This document shows positions 1-64,000 of a DNA stretch of 64,000 nucleotides, piece after piece (position 1 is the stretch's first letter; each line of letters opens with the position of its first letter). The stretch comes from Escherichia phage ERS-1, in sequence record PP337211; one strand, 5' to 3'. The translations under genes and the position numbers were made by a program. Below the pieces are notes generated by a model that saw only the letters and a list, made by a program, of their open reading frames with translations, ran no database searches and was not told the DNA's origin.

Positions 1-173
1 GGAATTGAAAATGATTTGTGGTCATGAGAACTTGTACGAGTAAATGATTTATCTTTAGCATAAACCAAAGTTACTTCATGACCATTTTTAATAAACCAAT
101 CACGTTGCTCAAGAGAAAATTTAGTTACGCCACAACCTTCAAGACCTCGAGCCATAAAAATACATACTTTCAT
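1..173 (-). CDS. a-gt: alpha-glucosyltransferase, N-terminal 57 codons (T-even phage a-gt); gene runs off the left edge
   Basis: Minus-strand translation from ATG at 173-171 gives MKVCIFMARGLEGCGVTKFSLEQRDWFIKNGHEVTLVYAKDKSFTRTSSHDHKSFSI, recognised from memory as the T4 alpha-glucosyltransferase N-terminus; GAGGA RBS 6 nt upstream. Confidence 0.7.
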   Translation of the reverse strand, partial: MKVCIFMARGLEGCGVTKFSLEQRDWFIKNGHEVTLVYAKDKSFTRTSSHDHKSFSI

Positions 174-204
174 TTAATATCCTCATTGTTTTGGTTTATT
201 TTAC

Positions 205-244
205 CAAAAAATTTATAAAGCAATATAGGAGCCGAAGCTCCTAT
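205..244 (-). terminator. hairpin (taggagc-UUCG-gctccta on the minus strand) followed by a U-rich run; T4-style intrinsic terminator
   Basis: Inverted repeat 227-244 with cgaa/uucg tetraloop, T-rich tract downstream on the minus strand. Confidence 0.4.
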
Positions 245-414
245 CCGCATAATACACCATACAGAGGCTCATTAGAGCTTCTAAATTTTATACGCTTATA
301 TGTTATAGTTCCTTCCGCTTTAGCTTTATCATGCGCCTCTTTAAAGCGCCTCATCATTTCTACTTTAGAGGAACGAATTTTATTATAATCTATTTCAGAA
401 GTCTGGATGTTCAT
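241..414 (-). CDS. small hypothetical phage protein (57 aa)
   Basis: Minus-strand ORF MNIQTSEIDYNKIRSSKVEMMRRFKEAHDKAKAEGTITYKRIKFRSSNEPLYGVLCG read by hand; same polarity as neighbours; weak RBS; competes with the plus-strand track ORF 191..388. Confidence 0.3.
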   Translation of the reverse strand: MNIQTSEIDYNKIRSSKVEMMRRFKEAHDKAKAEGTITYKRIKFRSSNEPLYGVLCG

Positions 415-587
415 CTTTCACAGTTGCCACCATTTTTTGACTTGATAAGAATCAACCCACACTTTTATTAGGGTCTGCTCTTACAATAGGAGGATTAACT
501 TCTTTAATTGAACTATCGTGGTATTCTTTTTCAGAAATTTTCACGCAAAGATGACCATTCAAAGATTCAGTAAATCCTGCATTAATT

Positions 588-905
588 TTAAGACGCTTGA
601 ATTTTACGTGTGTAAGCATCAATCATATCCTCAATCTGCGATCTAGTAGTCTTCCAAAGAATACTAATAAGTTCATCGTTATATGGCTGTTTTAGAATAT
701 CCCGACTTTTCTTGATAGCATATTCGTATTGAGCAAAATTATTGTTTTCAGCTGCAATCTGAGCGTGCTTATAAAGACGGTTCAGTTCGCGTTTGTTTTT
801 AGACAATAACTTATTTGCTTTTCTTTCTGCTTCAAGACGGTTCTTTTCTTCAATAGAAGAAATAAGCTTTTCCACTTCATCATTAATTTCGGGTTTATCA
901 GTCAT
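588..905 (-). CDS. hypothetical T-even phage protein (105 aa)
   Basis: ORF track; AT-rich codon usage and polarity consistent with the neighbouring phage genes. Confidence 0.55.
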   Translation of the reverse strand: MTDKPEINDEVEKLISSIEEKNRLEAERKANKLLSKNKRELNRLYKHAQIAAENNNFAQYEYAIKKSRDILKQPYNDELISILWKTTRSQIEDMIDAYTRKIQAS

Positions 906-962
906 ATTATTTCTCTAATATAAAATAAAAATCATCATCTGTTAAATGATACCGATAGTTTA

Positions 963-1127
963 AAATTCTACACCATTAGATTTAAAAGCGGTATCATACG
1001 GATTTTCTGGATCAATATCAATGTCAAGAGCTAAAACTTCCCTGAGATACATTTTAAGTAAATAGGGAATAGCTTCAACTTCAGGTATTTCTTCCAAGAA
1101 TCCGGAGAGGTTAATCGTTAGCCTCAT
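963..1127 (-). CDS. small hypothetical phage protein (54 aa)
   Basis: Minus-strand ORF MRLTINLSGFLEEIPEVEAIPYLLKMYLREVLALDIDIDPENPYDTAFKSNGVEF read by hand; no clear RBS. Confidence 0.3.
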
Positions 1128-1154
1128 ATAAAAAATCCAAACTAGGAGAATCGT

Positions 1155-1667
1155 CTACAACACTTTTCTTTCAGCCCCCGGTGTTCTATAGGTTGATTCT
1201 TCGTAATGCGTCATTTTATCGTAGATGTCTTGAATAAAAGTTTCATCTACTAACGCAACCATATCGTCGTCACGGCTGTCATAGACATTGTGAACGAAGT
1301 AACTATATTTCTTTGCAACTTCCTTACGTTCTTTTTTAATACGTTGGACGAATGCATTAAAACAAGCTTGAGTTATATACGCATGTGGGTTTTTATATTT
1401 CGTTTCATCAAAATTATGAAGCCCCTTAATAGAAGCTTCTATACCATCTGCAATCATTTCTTGTTTCCAAGATTGGGTGTATCCTGAAAAGTTGAAACGT
1501 TTAGATAAGCCTTCTGCAATAAGCATAATGGCTAATCCGATAGTATCATTCTGACGAACTACTTTATTTGGGTCTTTATTATTTGCTAATTCTGTTTTCC
1601 AATCAATAATAGCTTGTAAAAGCTCTTTATTGTTTACGTAATTATATTTAGGCTTAGTTTCTGACAT
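1155..1667 (-). CDS. 55: late-transcription sigma factor gp55 (T4-like)
   Basis: ORF translation [31 protein letters not shown]... matches my memory of T4 gp55; GAGGTG RBS upstream of the ATG at 1667; C-terminal end may differ from canonical T4. Confidence 0.8.
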
Positions 1668-1749
1668 TTTCACCTCTTAGCTCAATTCATAGATCTATTA
1701 TATCATAATATTTGAAGATCTATCTTAAAGCATAGAGGATGAATCAATT

Positions 1750-1965
1750 TCACACATTCATTAAGTTAGCCGCTTCAAGAGCTGCATCTAGTGAATCAAA
1801 TTGATCGACATATTCAATCAATTCGCCATAATTAGCGTATAACCACCATTGGCTAAATTCATACTCAAGGATGAATCCATTTCCTTCAATTTGAGTTAAA
1901 CCAATGCAGTTTGTATTTACTTCATATCCGGCAAGACGCAAATCGTTAATAAGAGCTTCGTTCAT
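1750..1965 (-). CDS. hypothetical T-even phage protein (71 aa)
   Basis: ORF track; AAGGT RBS; tightly packed with the upstream ORF. Confidence 0.5.
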   Translation of the reverse strand: MNEALINDLRLAGYEVNTNCIGLTQIEGNGFILEYEFSQWWLYANYGELIEYVDQFDSLDAALEAANLMNV

Positions 1966-1967
1966 AA

Positions 1968-2168
1968 TTATACCTTAGCAATTTTTAGGTCTGCAAATTT
2001 TTTCTTGCGTTGATTTTTCATGCGACGAATAGTCTTATCGGAAATTTCATGCTTTTGATAAGCTTTAGATTCTACACCAAAAGCTTTAACATCAAATTCT
2101 GACAAGATATATTGAACCAACAATTCACGGACAGTATTGCGTCCAATTTTCTGATCATTCTGTTTCAT
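1968..2168 (-). CDS. hypothetical T-even phage protein (66 aa)
   Basis: ORF track; basic small protein, phage-like packing. Confidence 0.45.
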   Translation of the reverse strand: MKQNDQKIGRNTVRELLVQYILSEFDVKAFGVESKAYQKHEISDKTIRRMKNQRKKKFADLKIAKV

Positions 2169-2319
2169 CGTCTGATGAAGCTTTTTCCCATTTATCCAAA
2201 ATTTGAGGAGTTACAATATCGCCTTTTCTAGCAAAGAAACTACTTTATCATATGCGTAAGAATTGATGGCGTTTTTAATTTGAATAGTCATACATTATCC
2301 TCAATTTCATTAAAATTTT

Positions 2320-2345
2320 ATTATCCAAAAAGGGCCGAAGCCCTT
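2320..2345 (-). terminator. hairpin aagggc-UUCG-gccctt followed by a U-run on the minus strand
   Basis: Perfect 6-bp stem with cgaa/uucg loop at 2330-2345, T-rich tract downstream on the minus strand. Confidence 0.45.
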
Positions 2346-2546
2346 AGCTAAACTGTTTGGCACCCTTCCAGCCTTCGTACATCATTGCGGCTGATATTAA
2401 TATTGCTCCTGAGCAACTTGAATATTTGTGATTCCAAAACCAGTTCAGAAAAACTTACCGTCATCAATACCCTGGGCTATCATATTTTCAAAGAACTGGC
2501 GACGAGCTTCAGCAATTCGTTGTGATAATTTAGATTCAGGATTCAT

Positions 2547-2678
2547 TTAAATTTTCCAGTTACCGTTTTCATCAATGAATTTAATCCAGTCATTTACTGA
2601 CCACTTAGTCGTATCGCCTTTTGGAGCAACATTTAAAGTGTATAATCCTTGTTTAAAAAGCATTCGTTTGATATTCAT
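2547..2678 (-). CDS. small hypothetical phage protein (43 aa)
   Basis: ATG at 2678 preceded by GAGGAAAAT RBS; translation MNIKRMLFKQGLYTLNVAPKGDTTKWSVNDWIKFIDENGNWKI. Confidence 0.4.
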   Translation of the reverse strand: MNIKRMLFKQGLYTLNVAPKGDTTKWSVNDWIKFIDENGNWKI

Positions 2679-2685
2679 ATTTTCC

Positions 2686-2961
2686 TCAGCTGTAACGATA
2701 GCACTCGTTTGATTTACGCTTAGCAACTCGTTGAGAAGTATTGTAATCAAAATCATCGTCAATGTAAACTGATTTTTTCAACTTTCTTACTTCACTACGC
2801 AATTGACGGTTTAGCTCATCTTTAACTTCTGAATCAATGCCTTTCATTCTACGCCATTTATCAGAGCGAAAAATGTTTTCAACCATATCTTTATGACTTA
2901 CACCATCAGGAGCTTTACGCTTTCCGAAATAGTCATAATCACGTACTTTTAAATCTTTCAA
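2686..2961 (-). CDS. hypothetical phage protein (91 aa; TTG start in track, internal ATG possible)
   Basis: ORF track; its 3' part (2731-2807) is the source of the inverted 77-bp copy at 4781-4857. Confidence 0.4.
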   Translation of the reverse strand: MKDLKVRDYDYFGKRKAPDGVSHKDMVENIFRSDKWRRMKGIDSEVKDELNRQLRSEVRKLKKSVYIDDDFDYNTSQRVAKRKSNECYRYS

Positions 2962-2973
2962 CGGCGATACGTT

Positions 2974-3150
2974 TTACCCATGGAGTTTAATTTCCTTAGC
3001 AACTGAACTAAATACGGCACGATCGCAAATCATCTGTTTATTCCATTTAAGTACAGTATAATGAACATCTAGATCATCTACTGCTGTAACAATAACAATA
3101 TGTCCATTAACACGATAATACTGATCCCTTTTAATCTCTTTATCAACCAT
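2974..3150 (-). CDS. small hypothetical phage protein (58 aa)
   Basis: Minus-strand ORF MVDKEIKRDQYYRVNGHIVIVTAVDDLDVHYTVLKWNKQMICDRAVFSSVAKEIKLHG with TGAGGA RBS. Confidence 0.4.
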   Translation of the reverse strand: MVDKEIKRDQYYRVNGHIVIVTAVDDLDVHYTVLKWNKQMICDRAVFSSVAKEIKLHG

Positions 3151-3282
3151 ATCAATTCCTCAAAGGCAATTCATATGTTAATAATACCACAGTTTGAACT
3201 TCTTGTAAACAACTTTGTGAAAATTATTTTAGGGAACGATAAGAAGGGAACGATGGCTTAGAATGGTAATATACAGAATGTG

Positions 3283-3305
3283 AGAAAGAAAGGCCCAGAG
3301 GGCCC
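3283..3305 (-). terminator. short GC hairpin followed by UUUCUUUCU on the minus strand, just downstream of nrdH
   Basis: ggccc...gggcc inverted repeat at 3292-3304 adjacent to the nrdH stop (3309). Confidence 0.4.
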
Positions 3306-3308
3306 GTC

Positions 3309-3617
3309 TTAATCTTCTATGATATCTCTATCATATCCAAGTGAAATGAGAGTTTCTTTGAAGTGTTTAATGTTCTTTTGTCTAGAATCATTGATGAAAA
3401 TGACTGGATAACGAATGTTAAGAGATGTGAATCCAGCGCGTTTAGCAAGAGATACAATCAGTGGACGATCATACTCAATCTTACCATTATTTGTAAGAAC
3501 TTTATAGAAAGTAAAAGGAGCATTAAGCTCCTTTAGAAGTTTTGTAACTGATTGACATCCAGGACAACGACCTACTTCATCTGGAATTCCATAGACTTCA
3601 ATCTTGTTTTGTTTCAC
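3309..3617 (-). CDS. nrdH: NrdH-like glutaredoxin/redoxin (102 aa)
   Basis: CPGC redox motif near the N-terminus (GRCPGCQS), size and position next to nrdG as in T4; GTG start with AAGGA RBS. Confidence 0.7.
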   Translation of the reverse strand: MKQNKIEVYGIPDEVGRCPGCQSVTKLLKELNAPFTFYKVLTNNGKIEYDRPLIVSLAKRAGFTSLNIRYPVIFINDSRQKNIKHFKETLISLGYDRDIIED

Positions 3618-3619
3618 AA

Positions 3620-3832
3620 CTATTCCTTACTAAGAGCAGCATTCAGTTTGTTAGTAATTTTATCCAGACGCTCATTGAACTCGCTAGAAGACAGTCCTTT
3701 TTCTGGAGAAATCAAACTAATCACGAAAAATATAACAATAAAAGGAATAAGGAAAATAGCTCCAACTGTCATAAACAGAAAGAATGTTACAGTTGTAAGA
3801 AAATCAGCTAAACCTTTACGAAATTTATACAT
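3620..3832 (-). CDS. small membrane protein (70 aa), hypothetical
   Basis: Hydrophobic core FLTTVTFFLFMTVGAIFLIPFIVIFFVISLI in the ORF track translation. Confidence 0.45.
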   Translation of the reverse strand: MYKFRKGLADFLTTVTFFLFMTVGAIFLIPFIVIFFVISLISPEKGLSSSEFNERLDKITNKLNAALSKE

Positions 3833-3951
3833 ATTTTACCCTTAATTGATTAACCAAGCATTGATAAGCACTAAACTATACTGCGAATAAAATTCTGGAC
3901 CAAAATGAAAAATCATATCATTTATAGTGTCCACAATATAATTCAATTTAA

Positions 3952-4419
3952 TCATTTTCCCCACACCCCATCGGTATTTGACCAAAGTCGCTGATTATCT
4001 GATCCTCGCCACAACTTTTTGGTCGGAAGATTTTTCTCATACTTCCCATCAATAATAACATCAACATATTTAAGCATTTCTAGTTGTTTAATATCTTCAA
4101 ACTTATATCCTGTCCACAACCAAATGCTTTTATTGGGATAAAGATTTTTTACTGTTTGAACGATGCAATGAACAACATCTCGGTTATCAGGATAGAGAGG
4201 GTCTCCTCCAGTTATAGTTAATCCTTCTATATAATCATTATTCAAACATTCAATTAATTGCTCCAGTGTTTCACCAGTGAATGGAACGCCATTTCTAGCA
4301 TTCCAAGTACTACGATTATAACAACCTTCGCATTTATGCAAACAACCTGTAACGAAAAGAACGACCCTGCAACCAGGGCCATTCACAAAGCAGCACGGGT
4401 ATATTCTGTCATAATTCAT
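3952..4419 (-). CDS. nrdG: anaerobic ribonucleotide reductase activating protein (radical SAM), NrdG
   Basis: CLHKCEGC (CxxxCxxC) radical-SAM cluster motif; translation matches my memory of T4 NrdG. Confidence 0.85.
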   Translation of the reverse strand: MNYDRIYPCCFVNGPGCRVVLFVTGCLHKCEGCYNRSTWNARNGVPFTGETLEQLIECLNNDYIEGLTITGGDPLYPDNRDVVHCIVQTVKNLYPNKSIWLWTGYKFEDIKQLEMLKYVDVIIDGKYEKNLPTKKLWRGSDNQRLWSNTDGVWGK

Positions 4420-4446
4420 TGGTGTTTAATCCTATGCATGATTTCT

Positions 4447-4677
4447 TTATTTTTGCCTAAGATTAAATCCGCGTTCGTTCGGATTTCCCAAATATCCGCA
4501 TGTTCTTCTTATTGTGTTCATCTTTTTAGGATCAGTTTCTCCACAAATAGAACAAACAAACCCGTTTTCAGTAGGAGTCATTTCATGGGTACTTCCACAC
4601 GTAAAACATTTATCTACTGGCATATTAACGCCAAAATAATCTAAATGTTGTGCAGCATAATCCCATAGGTTCATGCC
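4447..4677 (-). CDS. nrdD: anaerobic ribonucleotide reductase NrdD, C-terminal ~76 codons only (5' part of gene absent)
   Basis: CxxC...CxxC zinc ribbon and glycyl-radical motif RRTCGYLG; upstream in-frame sequence is a poly-A tract and repeat, not NrdD. Confidence 0.7.
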   Translation of the reverse strand, partial: GMNLWDYAAQHLDYFGVNMPVDKCFTCGSTHEMTPTENGFVCSICGETDPKKMNTIRRTCGYLGNPNERGFNLRQK

Positions 4678-4780
4678 TTTTTTTTTTTTTTTAGGTGCTG
4701 TCGATTCTGTTTGTAGTCGTCTGTTTAACCTTAGCAATACTAACTGAACCAAGTACAAAACAGTCAATTGCTAAGGTTAA
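4678..4780 (+). repeat. J-unit copy 1: T15 + aggtgctgtcgattctgtttgtagtcgtctg + perfect 14-bp palindrome arms (ttaaccttagcaat / attgctaaggttaa) around a 28-nt loop
   Basis: Directly read; ~85% identical by eye to the unit at 25997-26098; arms identical in both copies while the loops differ. Confidence 0.8.
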
Positions 4781-4857
4781 GTCAATTGCGTAGTGAAGTA
4801 AGAAAGTTGAAAAAATCAGTTTACATTGACGATGATTTTGATTACAATACTTCTCAA
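4781..4857 (+). repeat. perfect inverted copy of 2731-2807 (internal fragment of the T4-like ORF 2686..2961)
   Basis: 77/77 nt identical to the reverse complement of 2731-2807 by manual comparison. Confidence 0.85.
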
Positions 4858-4922
4858 CCAGTTTAAGTTTAAATTAATCTTTTGAGGTTTGTCGGAACAA
4901 TTTATATTAAACTGGTTCTTTT
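4858..4922 (+). other. hairpin (ccagttta ... taaactgg) followed by ttcttttt; terminator-like but with a 41-nt loop
   Basis: 8-bp inverted repeat 4858-4865 / 4907-4914 and downstream T-run. Confidence 0.3.
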
Positions 4923-4927
4923 TAAAC

Positions 4928-4971
4928 AGGTGCTGTCGATTCCGTTTGTAGTCGTCTGTTTAACCTTAGCA
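4928..4971 (+). repeat. left 31-bp inverted repeat of block A (aggtgctgtcgattccgtttgtagtcgtctg) plus ttaaccttagca half-site
   Basis: 30/31 identical to 4693-4723 and to the reverse complement of 25689-25719. Confidence 0.8.
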
Positions 4972-5002
4972 TATGTCTAATGTCGAAGCCACACACCACC
5001 GC

Positions 5003-5850
5003 CAGAGTTAAAGGATCGACTCCCATGGAACACCAGCACCTTCGGCATCAAGCTGAGCAAGATCTTCCCGTGGCTGGTTCAGGAAGGAGCTGCCGGGATC
5101 AATCGACTTCCCGTGGCGGACCTCCTCAACGCGCCCGGAAGGTGAACAGGCCTGCGCATGACCTTCGCCCAGCTCCGTCCAGGATGACCTGGCGGTGAAC
5201 GGTCGCCTTGGCGGGACGTTCAACCTGCTTCGCCGCCGGAAGGATGACGAAAGCGACGGGACCGCGGGCGCCGCCGCACGGGCGACTGTCCGTGAATGCC
5301 CGAACCTCCCTGGCCGGCTCGGCATGAGTTCGCCCTTCACGTGGTGGGGCCTTCCACCTCCCGGAGGAAGGCCGGGCGTCTGGGCGTCCGGACGATGTCA
5401 CCTGCCTGGAGCTGCGGCGGCGGCTCGTCACGCCTGCTCGGCGAAGGACCTGATTGGTGGGGCCTGGCTGTCTGGGTTGAAGCCCGGGACAGGTACTGTA
5501 CGAACACCGAGCATCCGAGGACCCTCCGGTGATGGTGGACATGGCGGGGATCAAGCGCAAGGACGCCAAAGGAAACTACCTGGGCCGTCCTACGGGATGG
5601 GCGGGGCGAAGATGTGCCTGGGCTCGGGCTCCCGACGATGATGGCCGTGCGCGGCCCCCGCTTCCGCTGTTCGACGCGGCACCTGCCCGGAGGGTCGGCG
5701 CCTGGTCGCGGAAGGGGCGCGGAGGTTCGAGGCCGCGGGGCCGGAGGGTCAGGCCCTCCTGGACACCCTCCACCCGGGTGCCCGTTCGCATCGGAGAAGC
5801 TGGCGAAGGCTTGCGAAGCCCGGGCGAAGGCCGTGGGCGGCGTCACATGA
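5003..5850 (+). pseudogene. first coding region of block A, hypothetical protein, frame lost repeatedly
   Basis: Protein-like stretches in three frames in succession (LPWNTSTFGIKLSKIFPWLVQEGAAGINRLPVADLL; DDLAVNGRLGGTFNLLRRRKDDESDGT; MVDMAGIKRKDAKGNYLGRPTGWAG; FASEKLAKACEARAKAVGGVT-stop at 5850). Confidence 0.35.
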
Positions 5851-6619
5851 CCTGAGCGGTCGCCGCTGCCGCTTCCCGAAGGAGGGGACGGGAACTACGA
5901 CTGGGACCCGGCGACCAACCGGCTGATCGGGCTCCTCCCGCGGACCGGGTCAAGATGGCGATGGTGGCCTGCGCGGAAGCCGGACTGGGGCGTCCCGGGG
6001 CCGGCGATGAGATCGCCTTCGGCTAGGCGAGGCGGAGGAGGCCGCGGAAGCTGCCTGGTTGCGGACGTGTACGCCGCCCCAACTCCCGTCAAGGTGGACG
6101 TGGAGATTGGGCAGGCTGGGGTCATCGCTTGGGCTGGACGGGAGCCGCCTTTGCGGTTCCGCTACGGGTGACGTGGGTGTCGGCTCACTCGTTTGCGGAT
6201 CGCTGCGGGTGTACCCGCTCGACCCCGCAGGAAGTCCGGGCGAACCCCTGGAGAACGATATGCGCCGTGGCAACGACAGCGTCCGTGGACCTCGAAGTGT
6301 TGGCGAGCGTGAGAAAGGGGGCCCTGGTCGACGGCGGCGGTGAGGAGGAAGTCTGGATGCCGGGTTGGTGTCCGCGCGGTCGAGAAGAAGGGCCTGCGGC
6401 CACCTGGACCGTCACCGAATGGATCGCCGGGTCAGAAGGGGCTGATATGAATGATCGCTGTGCGCTGGGAAGTTCTGGGCGGCGATGATCTGGGAGGCGG
6501 TCCTGGTCTGGCTCCTGGTAGGCGGTTGCCGGTGGACGCCTTCGAGTCCTTGACCTGGCCTCCTGCTGGGCGGCACTTCCTCGGAACGTTGCCCGGTTTC
6601 CGCTGAAGGAGGAGGTGAA

Positions 6620-6838
6620 ATGAGCGAACGTCAAGACCGCCTGGGACCGCCGCGATGTTGGGCTGGCCGGTCGTCGCGGGCTGGAAGGGGTGATCAAGGT
6701 CGGAGCCGTCCTGGTCGGCCGGGCGGTGGCGCGGCTTCGACCGGGTTCAACGGCTTCCCGCCCGGTGCGATGACTCGCCGGAGCTGTACGCTGACCGCGG
6801 TGTACCTGCCGTCGGTGGCGGAGGCGTTGGCTCTTTAG
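6620..6838 (+). CDS. hypothetical protein start with strong RBS (GAAGGAGGAGGTGAA-ATG); downstream frame drifts
   Basis: AGGAGG 6-8 nt before ATG 6620; N-terminus MSERQDRLG, then protein-like sequence continues in another frame (DRRDVGLAGRRGLEGVIKVGAVLVGRAVARL). Confidence 0.4.
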   Translation: MSERQDRLGPPRCWAGRSSRAGRGDQGRSRPGRPGGGAASTGFNGFPPGAMTRRSCTLTAVYLPSVAEALAL

Positions 6839-9800
6839 GCTCGCCTGCGACGGCTTCGCTCTACATTCTTTCCCTGCTGTCCGAACTGTATGGAGGCCGC
6901 GGGGAAGGCGGGCGTGAAGCGGGTCGCCTTCCCGGTCGACTACGGGCTGCGATCCGGGGTGGGTTGCTGAGTGGAATTCGACGGTTGATGAGGCTTTGGA
7001 AGTCGCCCGCCGTTAGGGGTTGAAGCGAGGTGGGTAGATGTCTGAAGCCGGGCGCGGGACTCCCTCCGCCCCGTCATCCGGTCGCTGGACCCGGTGCGCG
7101 TGGAGAACCCCTTTCGCGCCCGGGACCCCGGATGTGAACTATGCCGGGCTGGATTGAATTGAAGTTCGCTGAACGCTGGCCGCCCTGGGCGGACCGCTTC
7201 CGAGTGGACCGACTCCACCTGCCCAGCACCTGGCTCACCCGTCGCCGGGTGCCGGGGCCGGGCCTTCCTCCTGCTGAAGGTCGGGAGACGGAGTGGTTGC
7301 TGATTCGATGGAGCGGTGGCCGCTGCGACGCCGGGCCGGGTTCCGCGAGAACGCCTGTATGAGGTCTGCGCTGCCGTTGGATGCCTTCCAGAAATGAGGA
7401 GATTTGTAAATGTCGCCGCGGTGAGGCGGGCGGAAGGTGAAAGCCCACCGCTACACCGCCGCTGGCAGGGTTGAACCAAATTGAGGCCGCGAAGGAGTAC
7501 GGGGTCCTTGCACCGCTACCGTGATGGGAAGCGGACCGCCGCCTGGACGATGAACCGTGCCTGTCCCGGCGAGGTCCGAGCCCGAGGTCTGCTTGCTGTT
7601 CCGCCGCCGCTCGGGCAAGACCTGCGCGAAATCGCCGCCGCTCTGGGCTGACTCGCCTCGGGTTGTCCAGATGGCAGGACGGAAAGCGCCGGTTGAGCGC
7701 CTTCGTGAATATTGGGGCTTTTGAGGGGGATCGGAAATGGCGGAACTGCCGAAGTGGAGACGAGGATGGTTGACTTCCTGAAGAAGCGGTGCCGGAGGGG
7801 CCGTGGGTCCTGACGGCCATCGTCCGGACGGGAAAACGGAGACGGTACCGTCTTGTTGCCCACTGCTTAAGGCCGCGGAGTGGATCGAGGGCATCAGGGC
7901 AAGCGGGCCCCGGATACTTCCTCGCCAACCCGGCTCCGCCGGGCGATGGACGTGAAAGCCTCGAAGGAGGGATGGCCCGCCTCGCCTGGCTTCGCGTCCA
8001 CCCCGCGAGCCGGGAGGACTTCGAGGAGGAGCGGGCGCGGGCGCTCAGCTGCTCCGGTCTGACCGCCGGAGCCGGCGGTCATCGTTGACTCGGGCGGGGG
8101 CTATCCGGGCTTTTGGCGTCGAACCCGTCCGAGGCCTGGAGATTGCTGGATCGGCGGCGAAGGCTGGAGCTGGAAGCGTAGGTGTTCGGCTGGAGAAGGT
8201 GTTTCAGGCGGACCAGTTGCCGGCCACGTGGACCGCATCATGCGCCTCCCGGGCGATCAACATGCCCCGCGAAGAAGGTGGAGAAGGGTCGCCTGCCGAC
8301 CCTCGCCCGTCTGCGTGGAGTGGAATGAGGCCGCTACCCCATCGAGGTTTACCCCCGCGGTTCGAGTCCAGATGGCGGAGCAGGGCCTGGCCGGGGGCCG
8401 TCCGAAGGTGAGATTGGGGCACGTCCGGAGGTTCGGGGACGGAGGAGCTGCGGAGCGGGCCCTTTAGGCGCAAGGCCATCCGTTACCCGCGCTGGCGCTG
8501 ATCGCTACTGGGCAGGGACCCGCCGGACCGACCAAGTACCCCTCCCGGTCGGAAGCCCTGTTCGGGTGCTCGCTGCGACCTCGTGCGGGCGGAGGTCCCT
8601 GATGAACGACTTCGCGGGTGATCGCCGGCTTCGGCGAAATCGCCGCGCAGCCTGTCCGGTAGGGCCCAACTGGGAAGGCTACGCCTGCGGGGGTTCGAAC
8701 GTGCCCTTGAGGAGGCGGTGCACCCTCGGCCTGGGCGGACCAGAAAGCTCGCCGTCGGTGGAGGTTGGCGGAAGTGCCGGGCGGTGAGGTCTGGGACCCG
8801 GCGATGAAGCGGTACGGGTCTGGGGGTCCTTCGAGGACTTCCGGCACGCTACCGCCGGAGGTAGTGGTTGGTCGGAGGAGGGGGTAGCCGTTGAGAAGGC
8901 CGCGGGAGCCTTCTGGATCGATCACCCGTGCTGCCCGGCACGAGACGGTTGGTTCGCCCCCGGCCTGAGGTCGAAGAAGCCTATGCCTCTGGCGCGGGTT
9001 CGCGCGCGATCCTCCCGGCGAGAGCTGCGCCCTCCCGGCACCTTCGTGAGGGCGCCGCCGGGGAACCCGGCTACCACGGTCACCTGGTCGGGTGGATGGC
9101 GCGGATGGTCCCGTTGCACGGCCCGGCGAGTGGCCGTGGTCCTCCGCGGTCGCCGCGGGCCGGGTTCTCTTCCTTCGCCGGTAGTCCTGGCGCGATGTTC
9201 GGGGGCGTCACGACTTCCGGCTTGCGACGAGCTGGTGGGCTCCTCAAACGCTTACCTTTGCATACCGTCCTGCTGTTCGGTGATGAGGCTTTCTTCGCCG
9301 GGAGGAGGCGAAAGCGTGCCGAGACCTCGCGACCGAAGAACGCCTGGTGATCGAGGGTAAGGGCGTGGACGCGGAAGCGGCCCCAACCATGTCCCTGGTC
9401 CTCGCCTCGAACGAAGATTGGGCGGTGCCCGCGGGTCTGGATGAACGCCGGTCTTCGTTGGTGGAGGTGGCGAGGGCCCGGTGACCCCGCCTGATTTCAG
9501 CGGTTGGGTGATGATCTGGAGGGCGCAGGACGCAGCCCGCCCCAGCCTTTCTCCCACCTATGACCTGAGCGCCTTCGAGGTTCGCCAGTTAACCGGGCGC
9601 TGCAGGACCAGAAGATCATGAGCATGTCGCCGGAAACCTGTGGATGTATGAGAAGCTGTGGGAGGGCCGGTCGCTCAAAGACCGACCAGGACTGGCGAAG
9701 CAAGGTGGTGAAGGACAGCTGCTGCCGCATGACGACGACGCAACGACCTCCGCGACCAGGGCCGGAACTTCCGCATGAGCCGCACCCGGCTTCGGCGGCT

Positions 9801-10503
9801 GGCTGCCCGGGCCTTCCCGGACGGCTGGCCGCGAAGTGAAATGGCGGAGATCGCTTGGACGGGTCAAGGTTGGCTTCGAGGTGATGATCGAAGAAGCGCG
9901 TGGCCACCACCCGCCGCCGGAGGTGTCCGGCGCCTGGGAGAACTTTGGCGGCCCGTTCGAGTGGCCCGGGGTCCAACCTACCAGGAGCCTCTGAGGACGG
10001 CCCGAAGTCGGAGGCCGTCCCTTCCCAGGATGCCCCCATGAGTGAGCACGCTGTAAGCGACGAAGCGGGAGCTGGAGGGGGCGGGGATCGCCTACACGGT
10101 GGAGCTGGCCGGAGAGGTCAGGAGGCCGCTTCGCCGTGAGGGGGAAAGCCCCGATGGTGACGTGCTCGCGGACTTCCTCCACGTCGCGTGGCCCTCGGTC
10201 GCTCGCCTTCGCGTCTGGTGGAAGACCGCCGCGCGCTGGAATTGACCTGAACCGCTTTACTTCTTCGGACTCTATCACTTCTTTGCCAGTTTGAGAAATG
10301 AACTGGTCCGGCCAGGTCGCGATTCGAGATTGGAAAGGAGCTGACCCTTAAATTAGGAAGAAGCCTTCCGCTGGTGCGGCTTCCCGATCCCGCGCGGTGG
10401 GGGTCCTGGTAAGTTGGGCGAGGACTCGCTGCGCGAAGCCCGTTGCGATTCGAGTTTGAAGTCGGTTCGCCTTCGGGCTATGCGTGGACGCTGACGAGGT
10501 TGT

Positions 10504-10758
10504 GTGACCGCCCGCTGGGCTGCTCCGCTCGCCTTCGCCGTCCTGCTGCTCTGGGGCCTGGCGGGGGTCTTTGCGGACTATCCTGGACCGCCCGGAGGTT
10601 TGTATCAGCTACCTGACCCGGGAGTGTGTGCGCGTGGTGAACGCGGACGGCTCCCCCGGGATCGTGTGGAGCCCTCCCGGACCGCTATGAGCGAGTGTGG
10701 GTGGAGAAGATTCTGTTTCAACCCTGAGAAAGGAGTTGCGCTACGTCTTTTTGGGTAG
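10504..10758 (+). CDS. secreted or lipoprotein-like hypothetical protein (signal-peptide-like N-terminus)
   Basis: GTG start after GACGAGG; MTARWAAPLAFAVLLLWGLAGVFADYPGPPGG looks like a signal peptide with AxA-type cleavage site. Confidence 0.35.
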   Translation: MTARWAAPLAFAVLLLWGLAGVFADYPGPPGGLYQLPDPGVCARGERGRLPRDRVEPSRTAMSECGWRRFCFNPEKGVALRLFG

Positions 10759-22490: not shown

Positions 22491-22597
22491 TAGGTTACTT
22501 GGGATTCTTACCTGAAACAAATTTGCCCAGGGTTGACCCGGCGGACCGGCCTGAGAATCCTTGTTGAGGCTTCCGGCTGTCCGAGGGCTTCCTGGGG

Positions 22598-22700
22598 CTA
22601 AGGTAAGTAAGTTAAGTAAGTTAAGTATCTATCTATCTATCTATCTATAAAGGGCTGTTTTATATGGCCTTTTTGCCCGCTTGACTTTTTACTTTTTCGG
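22598..22700 (+). promoter_or_regulatory. island 1: AAGGTAAGTAAGTTAAGTAAGTTAAG (stops in all three frames) + (TATC)6 microsatellite + TATAAA + TTGACT + T-rich run
   Basis: Directly read; AT-rich intergenic module between the 22490 stop and the SD+GTG start at 22927; homologous inverted copy at 63420-63515. Confidence 0.7.
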
Positions 22701-25719: not shown

Positions 25720-25725
25720 GAGTAT

Positions 25726-26098: not shown

Positions 26099-26099
26099 A

Positions 26100-52200: not shown

Positions 52201-55200
52201 GTCGACGGGGTTCCGGCTACCGTGGTCCTGGCCCTGATCAGCTGTTCGTAGCCGTTGGGGCTCCTGCAGACTGTCGGCGGCCCTGTTCTCGATCGTGTCC
52301 TCCTCCGCAGGCGCAGGCCGGTGACGTTCAGTCAATCTCGTTAGCCGTTGCAACCTCCGGATCGAGTGGTGGGTCGATCCGTTTGTCCCGTCTGACTCCA
52401 CCGCCGATATCCGCGCCGTCCGGGCCAATCTCCTGGACGCGCGCGTTGCGGAACGGATCGCCGCTCGCGCGCCTCGCCCCTCGAGGCGTCCCGGGCGATC
52501 ATCGCCTGTTTCCGGCGGGTAGGCCTTGGCCTCCGGGCCGCGGGTGAAAACTTGTACCGTGAACCCGGTCCGGTACGGTAAAGCGGCGACCGCCCGGCTG
52601 CTCTCGAAGGTCGCGCCGCGAAGTCGGTGCGGCGCAACGTGATTCGGCATAGGGCTGTCCGCGGGCGGCAGGGTCGCCCGCGTCCTCCTGGGCGGCCGCG
52701 GATCGGAGCCCCGCCGTTGAGGGCCGGGGCGTCCGTGGTCGGCTGGTGTTGAAACCTGCCGGGTGATTCCGTCGCGGGCGCTGTCGAAGGTCGGGAGGGT
52801 CATTGGCGCACCTGCAATTTCCGTTATCGCTCGCCCGTTCGGGTTCTGGTTTCGGCGATGACCTTCCGGTCTCCGGAGCCGGCGGCCTTCGACCTCCGGC
52901 GGAGCCGTGCGCGTCTCTCCGCGGGCGAAGTCGCGCTGGTCGCCCTTGCGGATCGTCGGCCGTCGATGTAGCGTTGCTGGTGTTGGACACCGCTTCAACC
53001 GGTGGTCCGCCGCGACGTTGCCGCCCGGCTTCCGGCTTGCCGCCGGGATCGGGGCGGCCCCGGCGGTGAAGCCCCGCAGGTTGCGGCCTGGCCGTTCTTC
53101 TTGACCGTTCTTGGCCCTGCGCGATAGCGGGTAGTACTGTGCCCGACCACCCGTGCCAGGCCGCCGGAGTGATAAGCTGGTGGTACCTGCTTCTGGCTTG
53201 TCGCCGCCGGAGTATTGGGTCGGAATACGGCCCCGCCGTCAAGGCGACGGACTCGCTGACGGGTCGGACCGCCTTCCGACTTCAGGACCGCTGTCGCCGA
53301 GGCGTCTTCCGCTCCGGGTTGGGGTTCTGCTTCGCCAGGGCGCGCGAGTCGCGTGTTCTTCACCCTTTGCGGCATGTCGTCGATGTAGTAGCGGTGCGGT
53401 CTGGCGTCCGTCCGGTGCCCTTCCCGGTGGTCGCGGCCTGCTGCTTTCTCGCCTTCAAGTCGAACCGCTGTTCCGGTAGTCGGTCGCGCGGATGACCGCG
53501 GCCTCGGTCCCTGGGGGTCCGTGAGCCCGCGAAGGAGTCGCCCCGGTCGGCGCGGTAGGTCTTCGAACCCTCCCCGCCACGTAGGGTTCGCCCCGGCCAC
53601 GGCTCCCGCGTCGTCTGGACGACGGGTGCCGGCGCTCCTCCAAGGCTTGATATTTGGCCCGGCGGATCGTCGATGTTCCGTGGCCTCCGGTTGATCGGCT
53701 GGTTCCTGTTCCCGTACCCGGGCTGAGGGACGCGGGGACTTGAGGCTGGTGCGTTCCGACGTGCCGGGTCGGGGCGGGGCCGGGTCGTCCGCGGGCGTTC
53801 AGGCGGCGGTGATCCTGTAGGACGCCCGCCGCCCCGCCGTTGTAGCTGGACGCCACGAAGCCCCGCCGTTGTGACCGTCGCGCCCGGGCTTCGCGGCGCA
53901 TCTTCGCCCGTGTTTTCTGTCCAGTTGCGTCATGGCCGTGAGCCTGGAAAGCCCGGGTCAGGCGGTTTCCCGTGTCGGTCGCGGCAGGGAGGCGTGCGCC
54001 GCGCGCTCCTCCAACCCGTCCAACCGCTCGAGCCGTCCGCGCGATAGGCTACCGGGATTGGCGGCTGAACCCGTATCGCCAGGTCCGCTCTGCCCGAGGG
54101 TTCCTGGCGGGGAGCGTGCGTGAGGCCACATGCTTTTCCTGCTCGATCCGTCCGGCGAGGGTCCGGGTCGGCCGTGGTGACCTCCCGCTGCTCGACCTGC
54201 CGCGGTGCCTCCTTCGCCCCCGAAAGGGACGAAGGCGCGGGCGTCCTGGGCGAGGGCGACCAGCCGAAGGCCCTGTACACGCGAAGGCGAAGTGAATCTG
54301 GCCCTCGCCGGAATGGTTGGAAGGTGAAGCGCTGCGGGGGCGATGGCGAGGACCCCAGGCTCCCTGCCCCTCCCAGCTCTCCCGGCTGTGTGAGCCTTTC
54401 CCAGTGTCGGCCCGGGCAGTACGGCGGGTGATCTGGGCGGTGATCCCTGCGGCGCGAGGGACGCTGTCCGTTGCGCGAGGGTCACGACGCGGCCGGGGTC
54501 GAATCCGTACGGGACCACGCCTGGCGATGAAGGTACCGGCCGGTTGTTGAAGAAGGGCGCGAGGGCGCTTGTCGGTCGGAAGAAGCGGGTGACGGCGATG
54601 TTCATCGTTGGTTCTCCGGTTGGTGGGGGCAGGGTAGTGGGTGGACGGCGGACGCGCCCAGGCTGAAAGGGGCCTTTCGGCTTTCCCGACGGCCCGGTCG
54701 CCGTCTGCGGCGACTTCCCCGGTAGCCGCCGAAGTCTCTGGCGGTGGTTGGCGCTCCGTTCGGCCCTCGCCGGGGTGGACCTGCTGTCCGGATCGGCTGG
54801 GCCTGCAGGAGAATTGGAGGCGCCCCGCTGATTGCCTGGTCCTGGGGGTCCTGTGCAGAGCGCGGCTCTTCCCCGCGCCCGGGCGTCCGCTCGCCGTCGG
54901 GCGAAACCCGCGCCCGGAAGGTCGGCGCCTCGCTGTCGGCGGGTTTTCCCCCGTCGGCGGTCTCGTTGTTGGCCTGGCGCGTAGGCGTTCCCCTCCCGTT
55001 CCCGGCGCGGACCTCCTCCTCGCAATTCGTCAGCGGCCTCCGCCGCCTCCGCGGTCGCGCTCCGCCTTCCCGGAGCCGTAGCCGTAGCCGTAGCCCGCGA
55101 AGGTGATCCAGTGCGACGGTGAGGTGCACGCCTGCCGTGGCCGGCTTGGAGGAGGGGAAGCCGAACACGGGGGCTTAACCTCGCCCGTCCGTTGCCCTTG

Positions 55201-59843: not shown

Positions 59844-61999
59844 CCTCCCCTTCGGCGGGTCTTCTGGCCGGGTCGGTGCCGGAGCTGCGCGGCCCATCGC
59901 CTCGCCGATCTTCCTTCTGCCCTCCCCTCGTCCGTTGAAGTCCTCCGGCAGGACCCCGCGGCGGAGGCCGTTCGGGTGCCCCGCGGCGACGTCGCGCTTC
60001 TCGCGTGCGACTTGGAGGGCCTGAAGGCCCGGGGCGTCCGTTTTTCCGTCAGGCTCCGGCCTGCGCGCCGCCGTTCGGCCCAGGCGGAGCCGTTCGCGGT
60101 GATGTCCAGGGCCTGGGCCGGGCGTCCTCGAACTGCCCGTTGTCGCGTTCCGTCGCCGGTCGCCTCCGCGCTGTCCGGCGCCGGGCGGTCGCCGTCGCCC
60201 GCCGGTCTGCGCTTCGGGAACTCCGCGCCAGGCCCGCCCCTTCCCGCCTCGGGTGTCCTTGAGGTCCGTGCGGCCCGCGGCGATGGCTTGGCCGGTGTGC
60301 TCACCAGAGAACCGGCCCGCCGGGTCCGGGTTGGGCCCTTGTCCGGCCTGACCACGGCCGGGTCCCAGTCCTCCCCGCACGCCCCCGAGGCGAGGATCGG
60401 GAAGCGGGAGACGGTGAGGATGTGGCGTTGGTCGGAGGAGGACTGCCTGTGAGCCACGTCCGTTGAGGTGAGCCGTGTCCGGGAGCGGGGGCTTGCCCGG
60501 CGAAGCCTTGGCGGTCCGCGTAGAAGGTGACCTGTGGGACGGGTAGTTCTGGCCCGTCGCCCCTTCCTCGCCCTTGCCCCCTTCTGGGCGTTGGACTTTT
60601 GCCGGCTCCCGGCTGAGGCCCGGCTCCGGACGCGGATGCGGCGCTTGGCGTCTCCGCGAAGCCGTCCTGCTCGGCGTAGTGTTCGATGATGCGGACGTGC
60701 TGGAGGACTTCACCCCGTCGATCACCTCTGACCGGGCGGCTGGGGTCGGCTCTGATCAGATCCTGTACGGGCGGTGCTCTCCCGGCGGTCCTTTGCGGGT
60801 CCGGGGTTGGCCGTCCTCCCGCGGGGCCGGGCGGGGGTCGATGAGGACGTGGCAGGGCCTTGCCTTGCCTTCGCGAACCCTTGATGGGCCAACGTTTGTC
60901 GTTCCCCGCAGGTTCCTTGTTGGTGATCGTCTCCAAATTGCCTTGGGCACGTCTCGCCTCCAGCTTGATCGGCTCGCTGAGGGCTTGCCGCTCTGGGCGT
61001 CCGCGTCTGTTCGACCTTGTTGAGGAGGACGGCGGAGGCCTGGTGCTCCTGATAGCCCTTGTCCGTCTCCCTCCTGGTGGCGGGTACGCTCCGCCCGCCT
61101 CGCGGATCGTTTGCCCCGCCTGGTCTCCATGACGTGCCGTGCGGAGGTTGGGCGTCGCCCCCGCTGGTCGTGGCGGGGGGCTCTTCGGGCTTTGTCGGCC
61201 GGTTGGTTCTCCTGGTTCGCGGATCTCGCCCGAAGGCGAGGACCCTGGCAGTTGCACCGAGGTTGCCCTGCTTGACGCGCGTGGCTCGTGCGCGGTAGCG
61301 GATCGCGTCGGCGTGGTCCTCCGCCTCCGTGTTTGTTGTCCGTCCTCGTCGTCGTGGGGGGGGGACCGTCCGATGGTCTGTGATGCCTGTCGAAAGACGG
61401 GACCTGCCGGGACCTCGCGCGGTCCCCCGCCCGCCGGAGGTAGTCGCCCCCCAGGCTCGCGGATTCGCTCCTGCCTGCTTGCGCGAGCCTGGGCCTCGTC
61501 CGCGGGCGTCGGCGACGCCCTTCCTCTCCGTCTGGCGGCGATGCCGTCGCCGTTCTCCCGTCGAAGATGGAGGAGCTGCGGGGCCGGGCTGACCCACCTT
61601 CCGGCGCCCAGCCCCTCCTCCCGGCCCTTGCCCTTGGGCGACCTCGGAGGTGAGGCGCGGATGCCCTCGTTGCGCGTTCCGTTCCTGCCGTACCGCCCTG
61701 GAACGGGTGATCGCCCCGCCTTCCCGGCCTCGCGGCCGTTCCCCTGGAACGGCTCCCCTTCCGACTCTGCCTCGGCGACGGCGAAGGGCTTGCAGCTGCC
61801 CCGTCGAAGCCGCGGCGACTTTCACCGCTTCGGGATCGCCGATGGCGGGACGGAGGGCGGGTGCACGTCCCCGCGGTAGATGTCGTCGGTGTCCCTTCCC
61901 GCGCAGACGCCCCAGGAGCCGTGGAGCCGGCGGCGAGTTCGGAGGGGTTCCGGCCGCGGCTCGAATCTTGCCGATGTACTCCGGGCGGCGTGGGGGTAT

Positions 62000-63190
62000 C
62001 CGGTTTTCGGCACGGACCGGTGGATGGCGACCCGGGGCGGTTCGCGCTCGCCGTCTCGTCGCGTCCAGGATTGCCCACCGCGGCTGTGGGGAGGCGGAAG
62101 CGGGCCTCTGACCCTGTTGTGGCCGGGGCCGTAGGGGTTGGTGGTCGCCCGGTAGCGGGTCCCGGCTTCGCGGGAGTGGTGGTGTCCGTTAATGGCGAGC
62201 CCCGCCGTCGCCCGTTGGTGCTCTTCCCGCCGGTTGCGGATAGGCGTGGCCGTGGCAGTTCAATCCTCCGCGACTTCTGGCGCCCTGCTCCTCGCCGTCC
62301 GGGAGGTCTTCTGTGCTCCCCTTGTTGTACTTGGCCCCCGGGAAGATGCGCTTGAACCGTTGGTCTGTCGATCGCGTCTGAGGGCTGGGGTAGGTCTGAC
62401 GGGGAACTGTATGCCCCGCCTCTCCACCCGTAGCCCTTCCCCCGCGCTGGAGGAAGCCTTCCCTGGTCGGTCTTGCCCGGGCCGCGCGTCCCCTGCCTCC
62501 CTCGAAGATCGGGTGCGCCTTTAGGAAGGCGAGCTGCGACCCGCACCGGCCCTTCCCTGTCGCCTCCGACTCCTTCCCCCGTCTCCGGTCCGCGGCAGCC
62601 CTGGCTCGCCGGGCTCCGCCTCGCGCCGCTCGGGTTCGGGTAGTCCGGGCGGGCGGCGATGGCGACCGCCTTGTCGGCTTCGGTTCGAGCGGTCTTCCTG
62701 CCGCCCTCCCCGGTCGGACGGCCCGACGGTCCGCGGGCGAGGTCCCCGGGTCTGGTTCTGCCGTCGTTGATCGTGGCCGGAGCCCCCGGGACGATTACCC
62801 CGCCGGTGCCCGAGGTGGTTGCTGGCCGCGTCCTTCCCGTCCTTGAACTCCTGCGGTGGGCGCGGAGGCTGATGGCGCGAGTGAATCGCTGGCACCCTCC
62901 GCCGGTGATGATTTCGTCCTTGAACTTCCCGCCGATGATCGGCGCTCCGCCGCCCCGCGCCCGCTTCAGGCCGCGCCGGAACCTGGTGCCGGCTTTGTCG
63001 CTCGGCGGGCGTCCTCCAGGGCCTGGGAACTCTCGGTCCCTTCCCCGGTGATAGTCGATGGTGGAGCCGGAGACGCGGCCTCCGCGGTGTATTCCGCCCT
63101 CCCGTCGGGACGCGTGCGGAGGGCTCCTGGCACCTGCTCCTTGCGGTCCGAGGTGAAGGGCCCTTCGGCTCCGGCTTTTGGTCTTCCTGG
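62000..63190 (-). pseudogene. P-loop NTPase-containing coding region (copy 2), inverted paralogue of 22927-24000
   Basis: Walker A GTRGPGKTD at 62465-62491 (minus); flanking AVAIAARPDYP, GKFKDEII and KGYGW segments are shared with copy 1. Confidence 0.35.
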
Positions 63191-63419
63191 TTGCGGTTCG
63201 CTCCCCCTTCGGCGTGTACTGTTCGTCGGTTGTGCTGCGTGGCCACCCGTCCCGGCCTCGGTCGGGCTTTCCCTCGCCGCGAGTATAGCGTGAGCTTGGG
63301 CAATAGCCAAGGGCGGGTCGCGCCCGCCCGCGGGGAGAGGTCGAGGAGCGTGTGGGCGGATTGCCGGCAGGCGCGCAGCGTCCTCCGCTTAGGTTCGAGG
63401 GCTGCGTTCCACTTTCGTC

Positions 63420-63515
63420 CGAAAAAAAAAAAGTCAAGCGGTAAAGGTTAAAAACCTGCCCTTTATATACAGACAGACAGATAGATACTTAACTCACTAA
63501 CTCACTTACCTTAAC
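63420..63515 (-). promoter_or_regulatory. island 3 (inverted copy of island 1): GTTAAGGTAAGTGAGTTAGTGAGTTAAG + (TATC)2(TGTC)3 + TATATAAA + TTGACT + T11 on the minus strand
   Basis: Reverse complement aligns base-for-base with 22560-22700, with substitutions and a different microsatellite composition. Confidence 0.7.
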
Positions 63516-64000
63516 CCCCTGACAGCCCTTCGGACAGCCGAAACCCTCAGTGGTGATTCTCTGGGCGGTCCGCCGGGTCGATTTGTCGGCAGAATTTATT
63601 TCAGGGTAAAGATCGAAGGTAACCTAGCTAAGGACGTGAACCCCAGACGGTTTGACCTCCCGCCTCGCCTCGCTTTCTCTTTTCGGAGCTGAACCCAGTG
63701 CATTTCGTAACCCGGGAGGTTCCCGGTCACGGAAGTGGAGAAGGAGGAGGGAGCCCCGCCGGTTTTCCGCTGGCCTTCGGCCTCCTGTAGCGAAGTCGGT
63801 CGATTGCCGCCCGGCGGGGCATTCAGGGGCGGGCTGCCCAGGTGTCGACCTGGATGGAAGGGGGTGAGGAGCCGCCCCGGCGGGCCTCCAGGTGGAGGGG
63901 AGGGGGTGGTTGTTGACGTAGGTGGAGCGGGGCGGTGGAATTGAGGGCGGCGTCCTCCGGGTCCCACGCCGCCCTCGACGGCCTGTCATCCCAGGTCGGT

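Follow-up and report, generated by a model that had tools for sequence, protein, structure and literature searches.

Composition and layout of the window

The stretch of DNA analysed here (in the following, the window) comprises 64,000 nt of sequence record PP337211, Escherichia phage ERS-1, and consists of T4-like and Yuavirus-like phage DNA connected by two repeat-built joints (4678–5041 and 25688–26130), whose nature and origin are the subject of this report. The guanine-plus-cytosine (GC) content amounts to ~34 % in 1–4677 and to ~68 % from 5042 on; followed along the window, it lies at 0.33–0.35 in 1–5000 and then at 0.58–0.73 to the end, with a sharp step. Near 26000 there is another, less conspicuous change, the AT skew dropping from ~-0.05 to ~-0.33. 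An earlier note, made from the letters alone, had described clean T-even phage DNA joined to decayed high-GC phage-like DNA and had considered an assembly chimera, a synthetic construct or a real mosaic. The incompatible composition of the two parts is borne out by the above values, and the separate database search of each block, as proposed in that note, assigned block 1 to Tequatrovirus and blocks 2 and 3 to Yuavirus.

The joints contain the Oxford Nanopore Technologies (ONT) ligation adapter, native-barcode flanks and 24-nt ONT barcodes. With these as landmarks the window divides into the following parts, numbered in the order in which they would have been read on the minus strand.

1–4677, minus strand: read 5 (block 1), T4-like, running off the left end of the window; 97 % identity to KFS-EC3, ime09, KIT03 and others
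4678–4692, minus strand: T15 run (A15 in read direction), adjoining the barcode flank; without counterpart in the references
4693–4766, minus strand: head of the block 1 read, with leader remnant, adapter top strand (4730–4757, 4 edits), AAGGTTAA, BC02 (4701–4724) and CAGCACCT
4767–4780, minus strand: tail remnant of a short read, TTAACCTTAGCAAT, barcode missing; exact match, pairing palindromically with 4725–4738
4781–4927, minus strand: read 4, a short T4-like fragment from the genome region of block 1, opposite strand, as seen by sequence comparison
4928–5004, minus strand: head of the short read, with degraded leader and adapter (4972–5004, weak match), AAGGTTAA, BC02 (4936–4959) and CAGCACCT
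5005–5041, minus strand: tail of the block 2 read, with AGGTGCTG, BC07 (5010–5033, 5 edits) and TTAAC
5042–25688, minus strand: read 3 (block 2), Yuavirus-like, a noisy raw read with DNA polymerase, primase, early genes, terminase and portal
25688–25719, minus strand: orphan BC02 (2 edits) with CAGCACCT, found by the barcode scan
25720–25771, minus strand: tail of the BC04 read, with AGGTGCTG, BC04 (25740–25763, 2 edits), TAACCTTAGCAAT and truncated adapter
25772–26006, minus strand: read 2, a short low-GC insert, partly T4-like gene 59 (helicase loader); T11 end on the plus strand
26007–26083, minus strand: head of the BC04 read, with leader remnant GGTGTTTTT, adapter top strand (26046–26073, 1 edit, 24 nt exact), AAGGTTAA, BC04 (26013–26036) and CAGCACCT
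26084–26129, minus strand: tail of the block 3 read, with GGTGCTG, BC05 (26098–26121, exact) and TTAACCTTAGCAAT
26130–64000, minus strand: read 1 (block 3), Yuavirus-like, noisy, with hypermodification cluster, ribonucleotide reductase, helicases, tail and head genes and terminase, running off the right end of the window

Adapters, flanks and barcodes at the joints

Repeats at the joints could be located, i.e., the T15 and T11 runs, a palindromic pair TTAACCTTAGCAAT/ATTGCTAAGGTTAA (4725–4780 and 26039–26097) and a direct repeat of 56 nt (4681–4736/4916–4971). Flank motifs are present far above the chance expectation derived from shuffled sequence: TTAACCTTAGCAAT (≤2 mismatches) occurs 7 times versus 0.07 expected, and AGGTGCTG 9 times versus 1.35 expected. 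The ONT adapter 24-mer TACTTCGTTCAGTTACGTATTGCT is found exactly at 26047–26070 on the minus strand (0 expected by chance), and the 28-nt adapter top strand AATGTACTTCGTTCAGTTACGTATTGCT with 1 edit at 26046–26073 and 4 edits at 4730–4757. Barcodes were scanned for by edit distance (Sellers alignment). This revealed BC02 three times with 0–2 edits (4701–4724, 1 edit; 4936–4959, exact; 25688–25711, 2 edits), BC04 twice (25740–25763, 2 edits; 26013–26036, 4 edits), BC05 once and exactly (26098–26121), and BC07 once with 5 edits (5010–5033), the latter between GTTAA and CAGCACCT. The weak BC07 match is supported by both of its flanks, since they sit where they are expected. Barcode matches with 5–6 edits outside the joints lack the flanks and were discarded as chance.

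Barcodes of read heads are framed by AAGGTTAA and CAGCACCT, those of read tails by AGGTGCTG and TTAACCTTAGCAAT; AAGGTTAA and CAGCACCT are what we take to be the native-barcode flanks of the ONT kit. The adapter version is the one beginning with AATGTACTTCG. A start adapter AATGTACTTCGTTCAGTTACGTATTGCT and an end adapter GCAATACGTAACTGAACGAAGT are given in the literature and are the same as the sequences at the joints; a 60-nt adapter top strand with leader is likewise given there. The sequences of barcodes BC01–BC08 are confirmed in PMC8342707. By exact match, the 32-mer of adapter plus flank is absent from the viral contig collection, and a 60-mer taken from the window had no counterpart in viral, genome or metagenome contig collections. 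Recombinase attachment sites, guide-RNA scaffolds and bridge RNAs were also compared with the joints; no match emerged, and these candidates were abandoned after the ONT oligonucleotides had given exact matches.

In front of the complete 28-nt top strand, read on the minus strand, lie a T-run and the leader remnant GGTGTTT. Bases beyond the 22-nt bottom strand are thus present, and these elements are therefore read heads on the minus strand. In read order, the BC05 Yuavirus read (block 3) with its BC05 tail comes first, followed by (2) a BC04 head, the 235-nt, partly T4-like insert and a BC04 tail, (3) the orphan BC02, Yuavirus block 2 and a BC07 tail, (4) a BC02 head, the 147-nt T4-like insert and a tail remnant, and (5) a BC02 head, the A15 run and T4-like block 1. 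An opposite reading of block 2, as a plus-direction read with a BC07 head, was rejected: the focus of the base-calling errors described below would then be the A of CA in block 2 and the T of TG in block 3, i.e., two chemistries.

BC02, BC04, BC05 and BC07 represent four different samples of one run, and since four sample barcodes occur in one record, the window is no single natural molecule. It is very probably a chain in which at least five distinct DNA molecules, all sequenced in one multiplexed Oxford Nanopore run (ligation chemistry, native barcodes), are lined up. These molecules would follow one another on the minus strand of the window, having been neither split nor trimmed, and each joint would represent the tail of one read and then the leader, adapter and barcode of the next; a natural phage-phage junction would not be present anywhere in the window. 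The record is an artefact of sequencing and data handling, in which nanopore data of a multi-phage run were left untrimmed and unsplit.

From raw appearance alone, with its abrupt change in GC and its repeat-bearing joints, the window could also pass for a real mosaic or an engineered element, in which a T-even genome was connected to ~59 kb of high-GC, pseudogenised phage DNA via recombinogenic repeats. Joints of a natural mosaic or an integrated island are expected to be of genomic nature (attachment sites, homology, target duplications). Those of the window are synthetic adapter oligonucleotides, their repeats being ONT adapters and barcodes of four samples, and none of the phage records searched with the blocks spans either joint. 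The probability of a real or engineered element is accordingly considered negligible. Among the three possibilities raised earlier, the assembly chimera thus comes closest, while the engineered T-even construct and the real mosaic do not survive the identification of the joints as ONT oligonucleotides. The premise that no T-even genome carries high-GC blocks of this kind stays true, the window being no exception to it.

T4-like pieces

Block 1 is 97 % identical over 1–4667 to Tequatrovirus genomes (KFS-EC3, ime09, KIT03 and others). It contains a-gt, gp55, 55.x, nrdH, nrdG and the start of nrdD, and shares with KFS-EC3 and ime09 the order a-gt, gp55, nrdH, nrdG, nrdD. At least 80 % of block 1 is covered by 498 phage records. 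Of the 955 matching T4-like records, not one reaches beyond 4667, which also speaks against a real mosaic.

The T-even part is less clean than previously assumed. Seven of the 13 genes of block 1, gp55 and nrdG included, differ in length from their KFS-EC3 counterparts by a non-multiple of three and show internal stops upon translation. In contrast to the Tequatrovirus genomes, these genes are broken by indels of 1–2 nt that are private to the window and located at columns where four references agree. A further difference is the lack of ~260 nt near window position 1740, which are present in all four references compared; this gap looks like natural gene-content variation rather than error. In ime09, KIT03 and IsaacDaniel, the ~260-nt stretch corresponds to one small annotated gene (RB69ORF072c-like in ime09).

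A recycled inverted fragment, as proposed in the earlier note, does exist: the 83-nt stretch 4781–4863 is 99 % complementary to 2725–2807 of block 1. The read 4 fragment, of which it forms a part, shows 94 % identity over 97 nt to T4-like phages; to KFS-EC3 it aligns in reverse orientation. Stretch 2725–2807 is only ~93 % identical to KFS-EC3, compared to 99 % between its two copies in the window. Most substitutions of block 1 versus the references are therefore real variation, and local accuracy is high. The 235-nt insert of read 2 displays 87 % identity over 68 nt to Tequatrovirus genomes.

Two overlapping reads of Yuavirus-type DNA

Block 2 (5085–25689) matches M6/YuA-type Pseudomonas phages (genus Yuavirus) at 83 %, with 34 Yuavirus-type records retrieved. 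Searched over 26142–50000, block 3 belongs to the same phage group (80–81.5 % among the best matches; 33 records), and its alignment with Yuavirus phage PaTs-2 extends to ~63820. Collinearity is directly apparent for both: block 2 follows PaTs-2 from 35418 to 13967 (reference minus strand; 81.5–82.4 % identity, 887 gap openings), and block 3 from 40008 to 61810 and then from 8 to 17491 (plus strand; 79–82 % identity). Because both blocks align to PaTs-2, they are two stretches of one kind of genome. Collinearity with Yuavirus (Mesyanzhinovviridae) is genome-wide, at a raw identity of 79–82 % over ~58 kb. Across these ~58 kb the gene order of PaTs-2 is shared, but unlike the Yuavirus/M6-like phages, the window holds raw frameshifted reads and no genome.

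In the high-GC part, formerly regarded as one block, phage DNA of a single kind has hence been read twice. The overlap of blocks 2 and 3 measures ~3.4 kb (PaTs-2 13967–17491); the two run in opposite orientation and share only 70.7 % identity there. Within the 3,435 nt of overlap, the differences from PaTs-2 comprise 401 found in block 2 only, 470 found in block 3 only and 63 (1.8 %) shared by both. Being mostly private to one read, they are therefore noise and not divergence. The sequenced phage is a few per cent away from PaTs-2, and ~12–16 % of the positions of each read are private errors. Such overlapping copies of one region, distinguished by private noise, are again at variance with a real mosaic.

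Barcodes differ between the two Yuavirus reads (BC07 for block 2, BC05 for block 3), which therefore stem from different samples; whether they represent the same phage is masked by the noise.

The reading frames of the high-GC part are as badly broken as had been reported. Relative to PaTs-2, blocks 2 and 3 contain ~1 gap opening per 25 nt, gaps account for ~7 % of the alignment, and genes are split over all three frames.

Base-calling noise centred on TG

Expressed for the plus strand, a reference A is kept in 59–69 % of cases, changed to G in 13–15 % and deleted in 10–13 %; the reverse change from G to A amounts to ~1 %, and there are almost no base changes to A in the high-GC blocks. In the overlap, the most error-prone base flips between A and T depending on the read considered. 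The errors therefore follow the sequenced strand and not the genome strand. The step in AT skew at 26 kb arises because block 2 corresponds to the minus and block 3 to the plus strand of the reference, both being short of plus-strand A.

On the read strand, the miscall rate of T preceding G is 72 % in block 2 and 79 % in block 3; it is 9–13 % before C, 15–25 % before A and 31–32 % before T. The trinucleotide error rates of blocks 2 and 3 agree closely (r = 0.97). To describe the footprint, error was determined as a function of the distance from the nearest TG, with an insertion after a base also scored as an error. The T of TG shows 73–80 % error, dropping on both sides to 6–9 % at ≥8 nt, and the footprint spans ~5 nt on either side. 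In the T4-like block no TG peak was detected (0.00–0.06 at every offset), and CA sites, which represent TG on the unread strand, showed no error peak. The synthetic BC05 tail beside block 3 was read without error, which places the fault in the phage DNA rather than the pore.

A hypermodified T passing the pore would cause the base-caller to miscall or drop this T and its neighbours. Damage of this kind would raise the apparent GC content from 64.6 % to ~68 % and deplete A on the plus strand of the window. What had been taken for decay of the high-GC DNA is base-calling noise centred on presumably modified thymines, private to each read, and not pseudogenisation. For a real mosaic this leaves two more features to account for, the ~7 % gaps versus PaTs-2 and the ~5-nt TG footprint, neither of which is an evolutionary signature.

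The decay might alternatively be biological, caused by A-to-G hypermutation (deaminase editing or mutagenesis of the diversity-generating retroelement type), or else be simulated (e.g., by Badread). A-to-G is indeed the commonest plus-strand change (13–15 %), and Badread inserts the same adapters by default. Against both stands that 10–13 % of the same bases are deleted, that errors reach neighbours within ~5 nt and that the changes are not common to the two copies in the overlap. In addition, the dinucleotide specificity fits an M6-type modification and would not be reproduced by a generic simulator, and the synthetic BC05 tail beside block 3 is free of errors. Hypermutation or simulation is thus hardly credible as the source of the noise.

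Proposed thymidine hypermodification

Hypermodified thymidine is known from Yuavirus phages. In phage M6, 5-(2-aminoethyl)uridine (5-NedU) takes the place of ~30 % of T (PMC5889632, Lee et al. 2018; also PMC11946847). Sites that resist restriction show an enrichment in TG/TC, and TG is modified by the purified 5-hydroxymethyldeoxyuridine (5-hmdU) kinase of M6 (PMC6449724, Flodman et al. 2019). From restriction data a preference for 'TG or TC' is proposed there, with an unpublished result cited for TG (PMC6449724). A corresponding gene cluster is present in block 3.

26448–30405, minus strand: remnants of the M6-type thymidine-hypermodification cluster, found by tblastn with PaTs-2 homologues

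The remnants comprise the 5-hmdU DNA kinase (26448–26977), a radical S-adenosylmethionine (SAM) protein (27056–28405), a pyridoxal phosphate (PLP) enzyme (28909–29618) and an amino acid:DNA transferase (29630–30405). Each gene of the cluster is found in the window by tblastn, split over 2–3 frames. Among the PaTs-2 homologues, the matches to PF18748 (kinase) and PF18724 (transferase) are strong, that to PF00291 (PLP enzyme) is just above the cutoff and that to PF04055 (radical SAM) is below the Pfam cutoff.

With kinase, radical SAM protein, PLP enzyme and transferase, the window resembles the M6-like 5-NedU phages, and likewise about a third of T would be affected, with TG preferred. TG thymines make up 32.9 % of all T in PaTs-2. 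A TG miscall rate of 72–80 %, with TG constituting 33 % of T, is consistent with the M6 literature, the error rate serving only as an indirect proxy for modification. The window differs in that its errors concern almost TG alone (TC 9–13 %), as opposed to the proposed TG or TC. In our interpretation, the miscalls stem from a bulky modification of the T in TG, the modified base presumably being 5-NedU. Searching the literature yielded no direct report on the nanopore behaviour of Yuavirus DNA. The noise may well constitute a single-molecule map, a reading to which we lean slightly, according to which nearly every TG thymine would be modified on both strands and few in TC, TA and TT. If true, the 5-hmdU DNA kinase step would have to be strictly dinucleotide-specific, at which the literature so far merely hints.

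AT-rich islands

Three low-GC islands (22561–22720, 38681–38800 and 63381–63560) exist in the high-GC part; they are natural features matched in PaTs-2 and not junctions.

22561–22720, no strand: AT-rich intergenic island upstream of the small terminase gene; also in PaTs-2
38681–38800, no strand: second AT-rich intergenic island, with (CTT)n and a TTAACTYACTTACCTTAA-like motif; also in PaTs-2

Islands 22561–22720 and 63381–63560 represent one locus contained in both reads, mutually inverted. The PaTs-2 counterpart of 22561–22720 is located at 17041–17220 (minimum GC 0.34), that of 38681–38800 at 52761–52860 with nearly the same sequence. The islands were rejected as further joints, as they are devoid of adapter motifs and PaTs-2 has islands at matching places. 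At 22600–22650, 38745–38795 and 63470–63520, tandem (CTAT)n or (CTT)n repeats lie beside a TTAACTYACTTACCTTAA-like motif. The AT-rich islands may be regulatory or origin regions.

Origin of the chain

An origin of the chain as one unsplit read, rather than by later concatenation, is favoured because all directional pieces point the same way. As in unsplit ('in-silico chimeric') ONT reads, adapter, barcode and leader lie internally between unrelated inserts, and the joint is palindromic (TTAACCTTAGCAAT … ATTGCTAAGGTTAA). The window differs from such reads in the unusual length of the chain (at least five molecules, four barcodes) as well as in the inverted orphan BC02, the missing tail barcode and the missing head.

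Several observations weigh against the proposed chain of reads. Five molecules in one unsplit read are unusual, and such a read looks no different here from reads that software has strung together afterwards. Irregularities affect three joints (BC02 at 25688–25719, the fragment at 4781 and the head of block 2). At the first, BC02 plus CAGCACCT abuts block 2 by its outer end and without AAGGTTAA, which is abnormal on either strand for a joint of barcode and insert; at the second, the fragment joins TTAACCTTAGCAAT without a tail barcode; and for block 2 no recognisable head was found, its BC07 tail being present. The T15 (4678–4692) and T11 (25996–26006) runs, A15 and A11 on the read strand, are not accounted for by the proposed chain. 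T4-like DNA should, moreover, carry glucosylated hydroxymethylcytosine; C-specific errors as a sign of glucosyl-hydroxymethylcytosine were sought in block 1 and none were seen, block 1 being very accurate (99 % over 83 nt).

In both T4-like reads, the run (T15 or T11) fills the space between flank CAGCACCT and the insert. T15 is absent from all T4-like references, homology to which ends at 4667. Both runs may be stall or base-calling artefacts.

The same artefact anatomy would result if an assembler or other software had produced the record, i.e., if untrimmed, non-demultiplexed reads had been joined by a long-read assembler or by concatenation. Four barcodes and five molecules exceed typical unsplit reads, and the irregular joints at 25688–25719 and 4767–4781 point in this direction as well. 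The heads at 4693–4766 and 26007–26083 and the T-centred noise of both Yuavirus blocks, however, share one direction, as in consecutive passage through one pore, while an assembler join would produce the same direction with a chance of only 1 in 2 per piece. Adapter overlaps of 30–60 nt are below usual overlap thresholds, and blocks 2 and 3 were left unmerged despite their 3.4-kb overlap. A software product is therefore judged rather unlikely.

Physical ligation of fragments during library preparation, with the chimera then sequenced as one molecule, is considerably less probable still. The reversed orphan BC02 directly abutting block 2 and the barcode-less joint 4780/4781 do look aberrantly ligated. 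Leader and full adapter top strand are nevertheless found inside the chain, and the 5' arm of the Y adapter, which bears the leader and the motor, does not serve as a ligation substrate. Judged from the oligonucleotide sequences, the native-barcode overhang AGCAAT is not self-complementary, and barcoded fragments should not join.

Adapter remnants in public records and significance

In E. coli genome and plasmid collections, the only matches to the joint sequence are exact adapter stretches of 34–45 nt. They are scattered over unrelated records of E. coli, Klebsiella, Clostridium and Ligilactobacillus, where they sit at the ends or at exact midpoints. Window region 26035–26128 has exact adapter or barcode matches at the midpoints of NZ_CP195331.1, NZ_CP195333.1, NZ_CP073657.1, NZ_CP119189.1 and NZ_CP124743.1 and at the ends of NZ_CP187286.1, NZ_CM167660.1, NZ_CP115839.1 and NZ_CP114503.1. 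The midpoint adapters in RefSeq/PLSDB records suggest untrimmed adapters and doubled, palindromic mis-assemblies of plasmids.

As a genome feature the window carries no weight, since a T-even/high-GC mosaic does not exist. It is of relevance for data hygiene: a record of this kind would be mistaken in annotation for a giant, pseudogene-ridden mosaic phage. As a by-product of the analysis, ordinary nanopore reads of native Yuavirus DNA were found to bear a strand-specific footprint of errors, sharply focused on TG. This footprint explains the failure of nanopore-only assemblies of such phages, and it could be of use in mapping hypermodified thymidines and in recognising modified phages.

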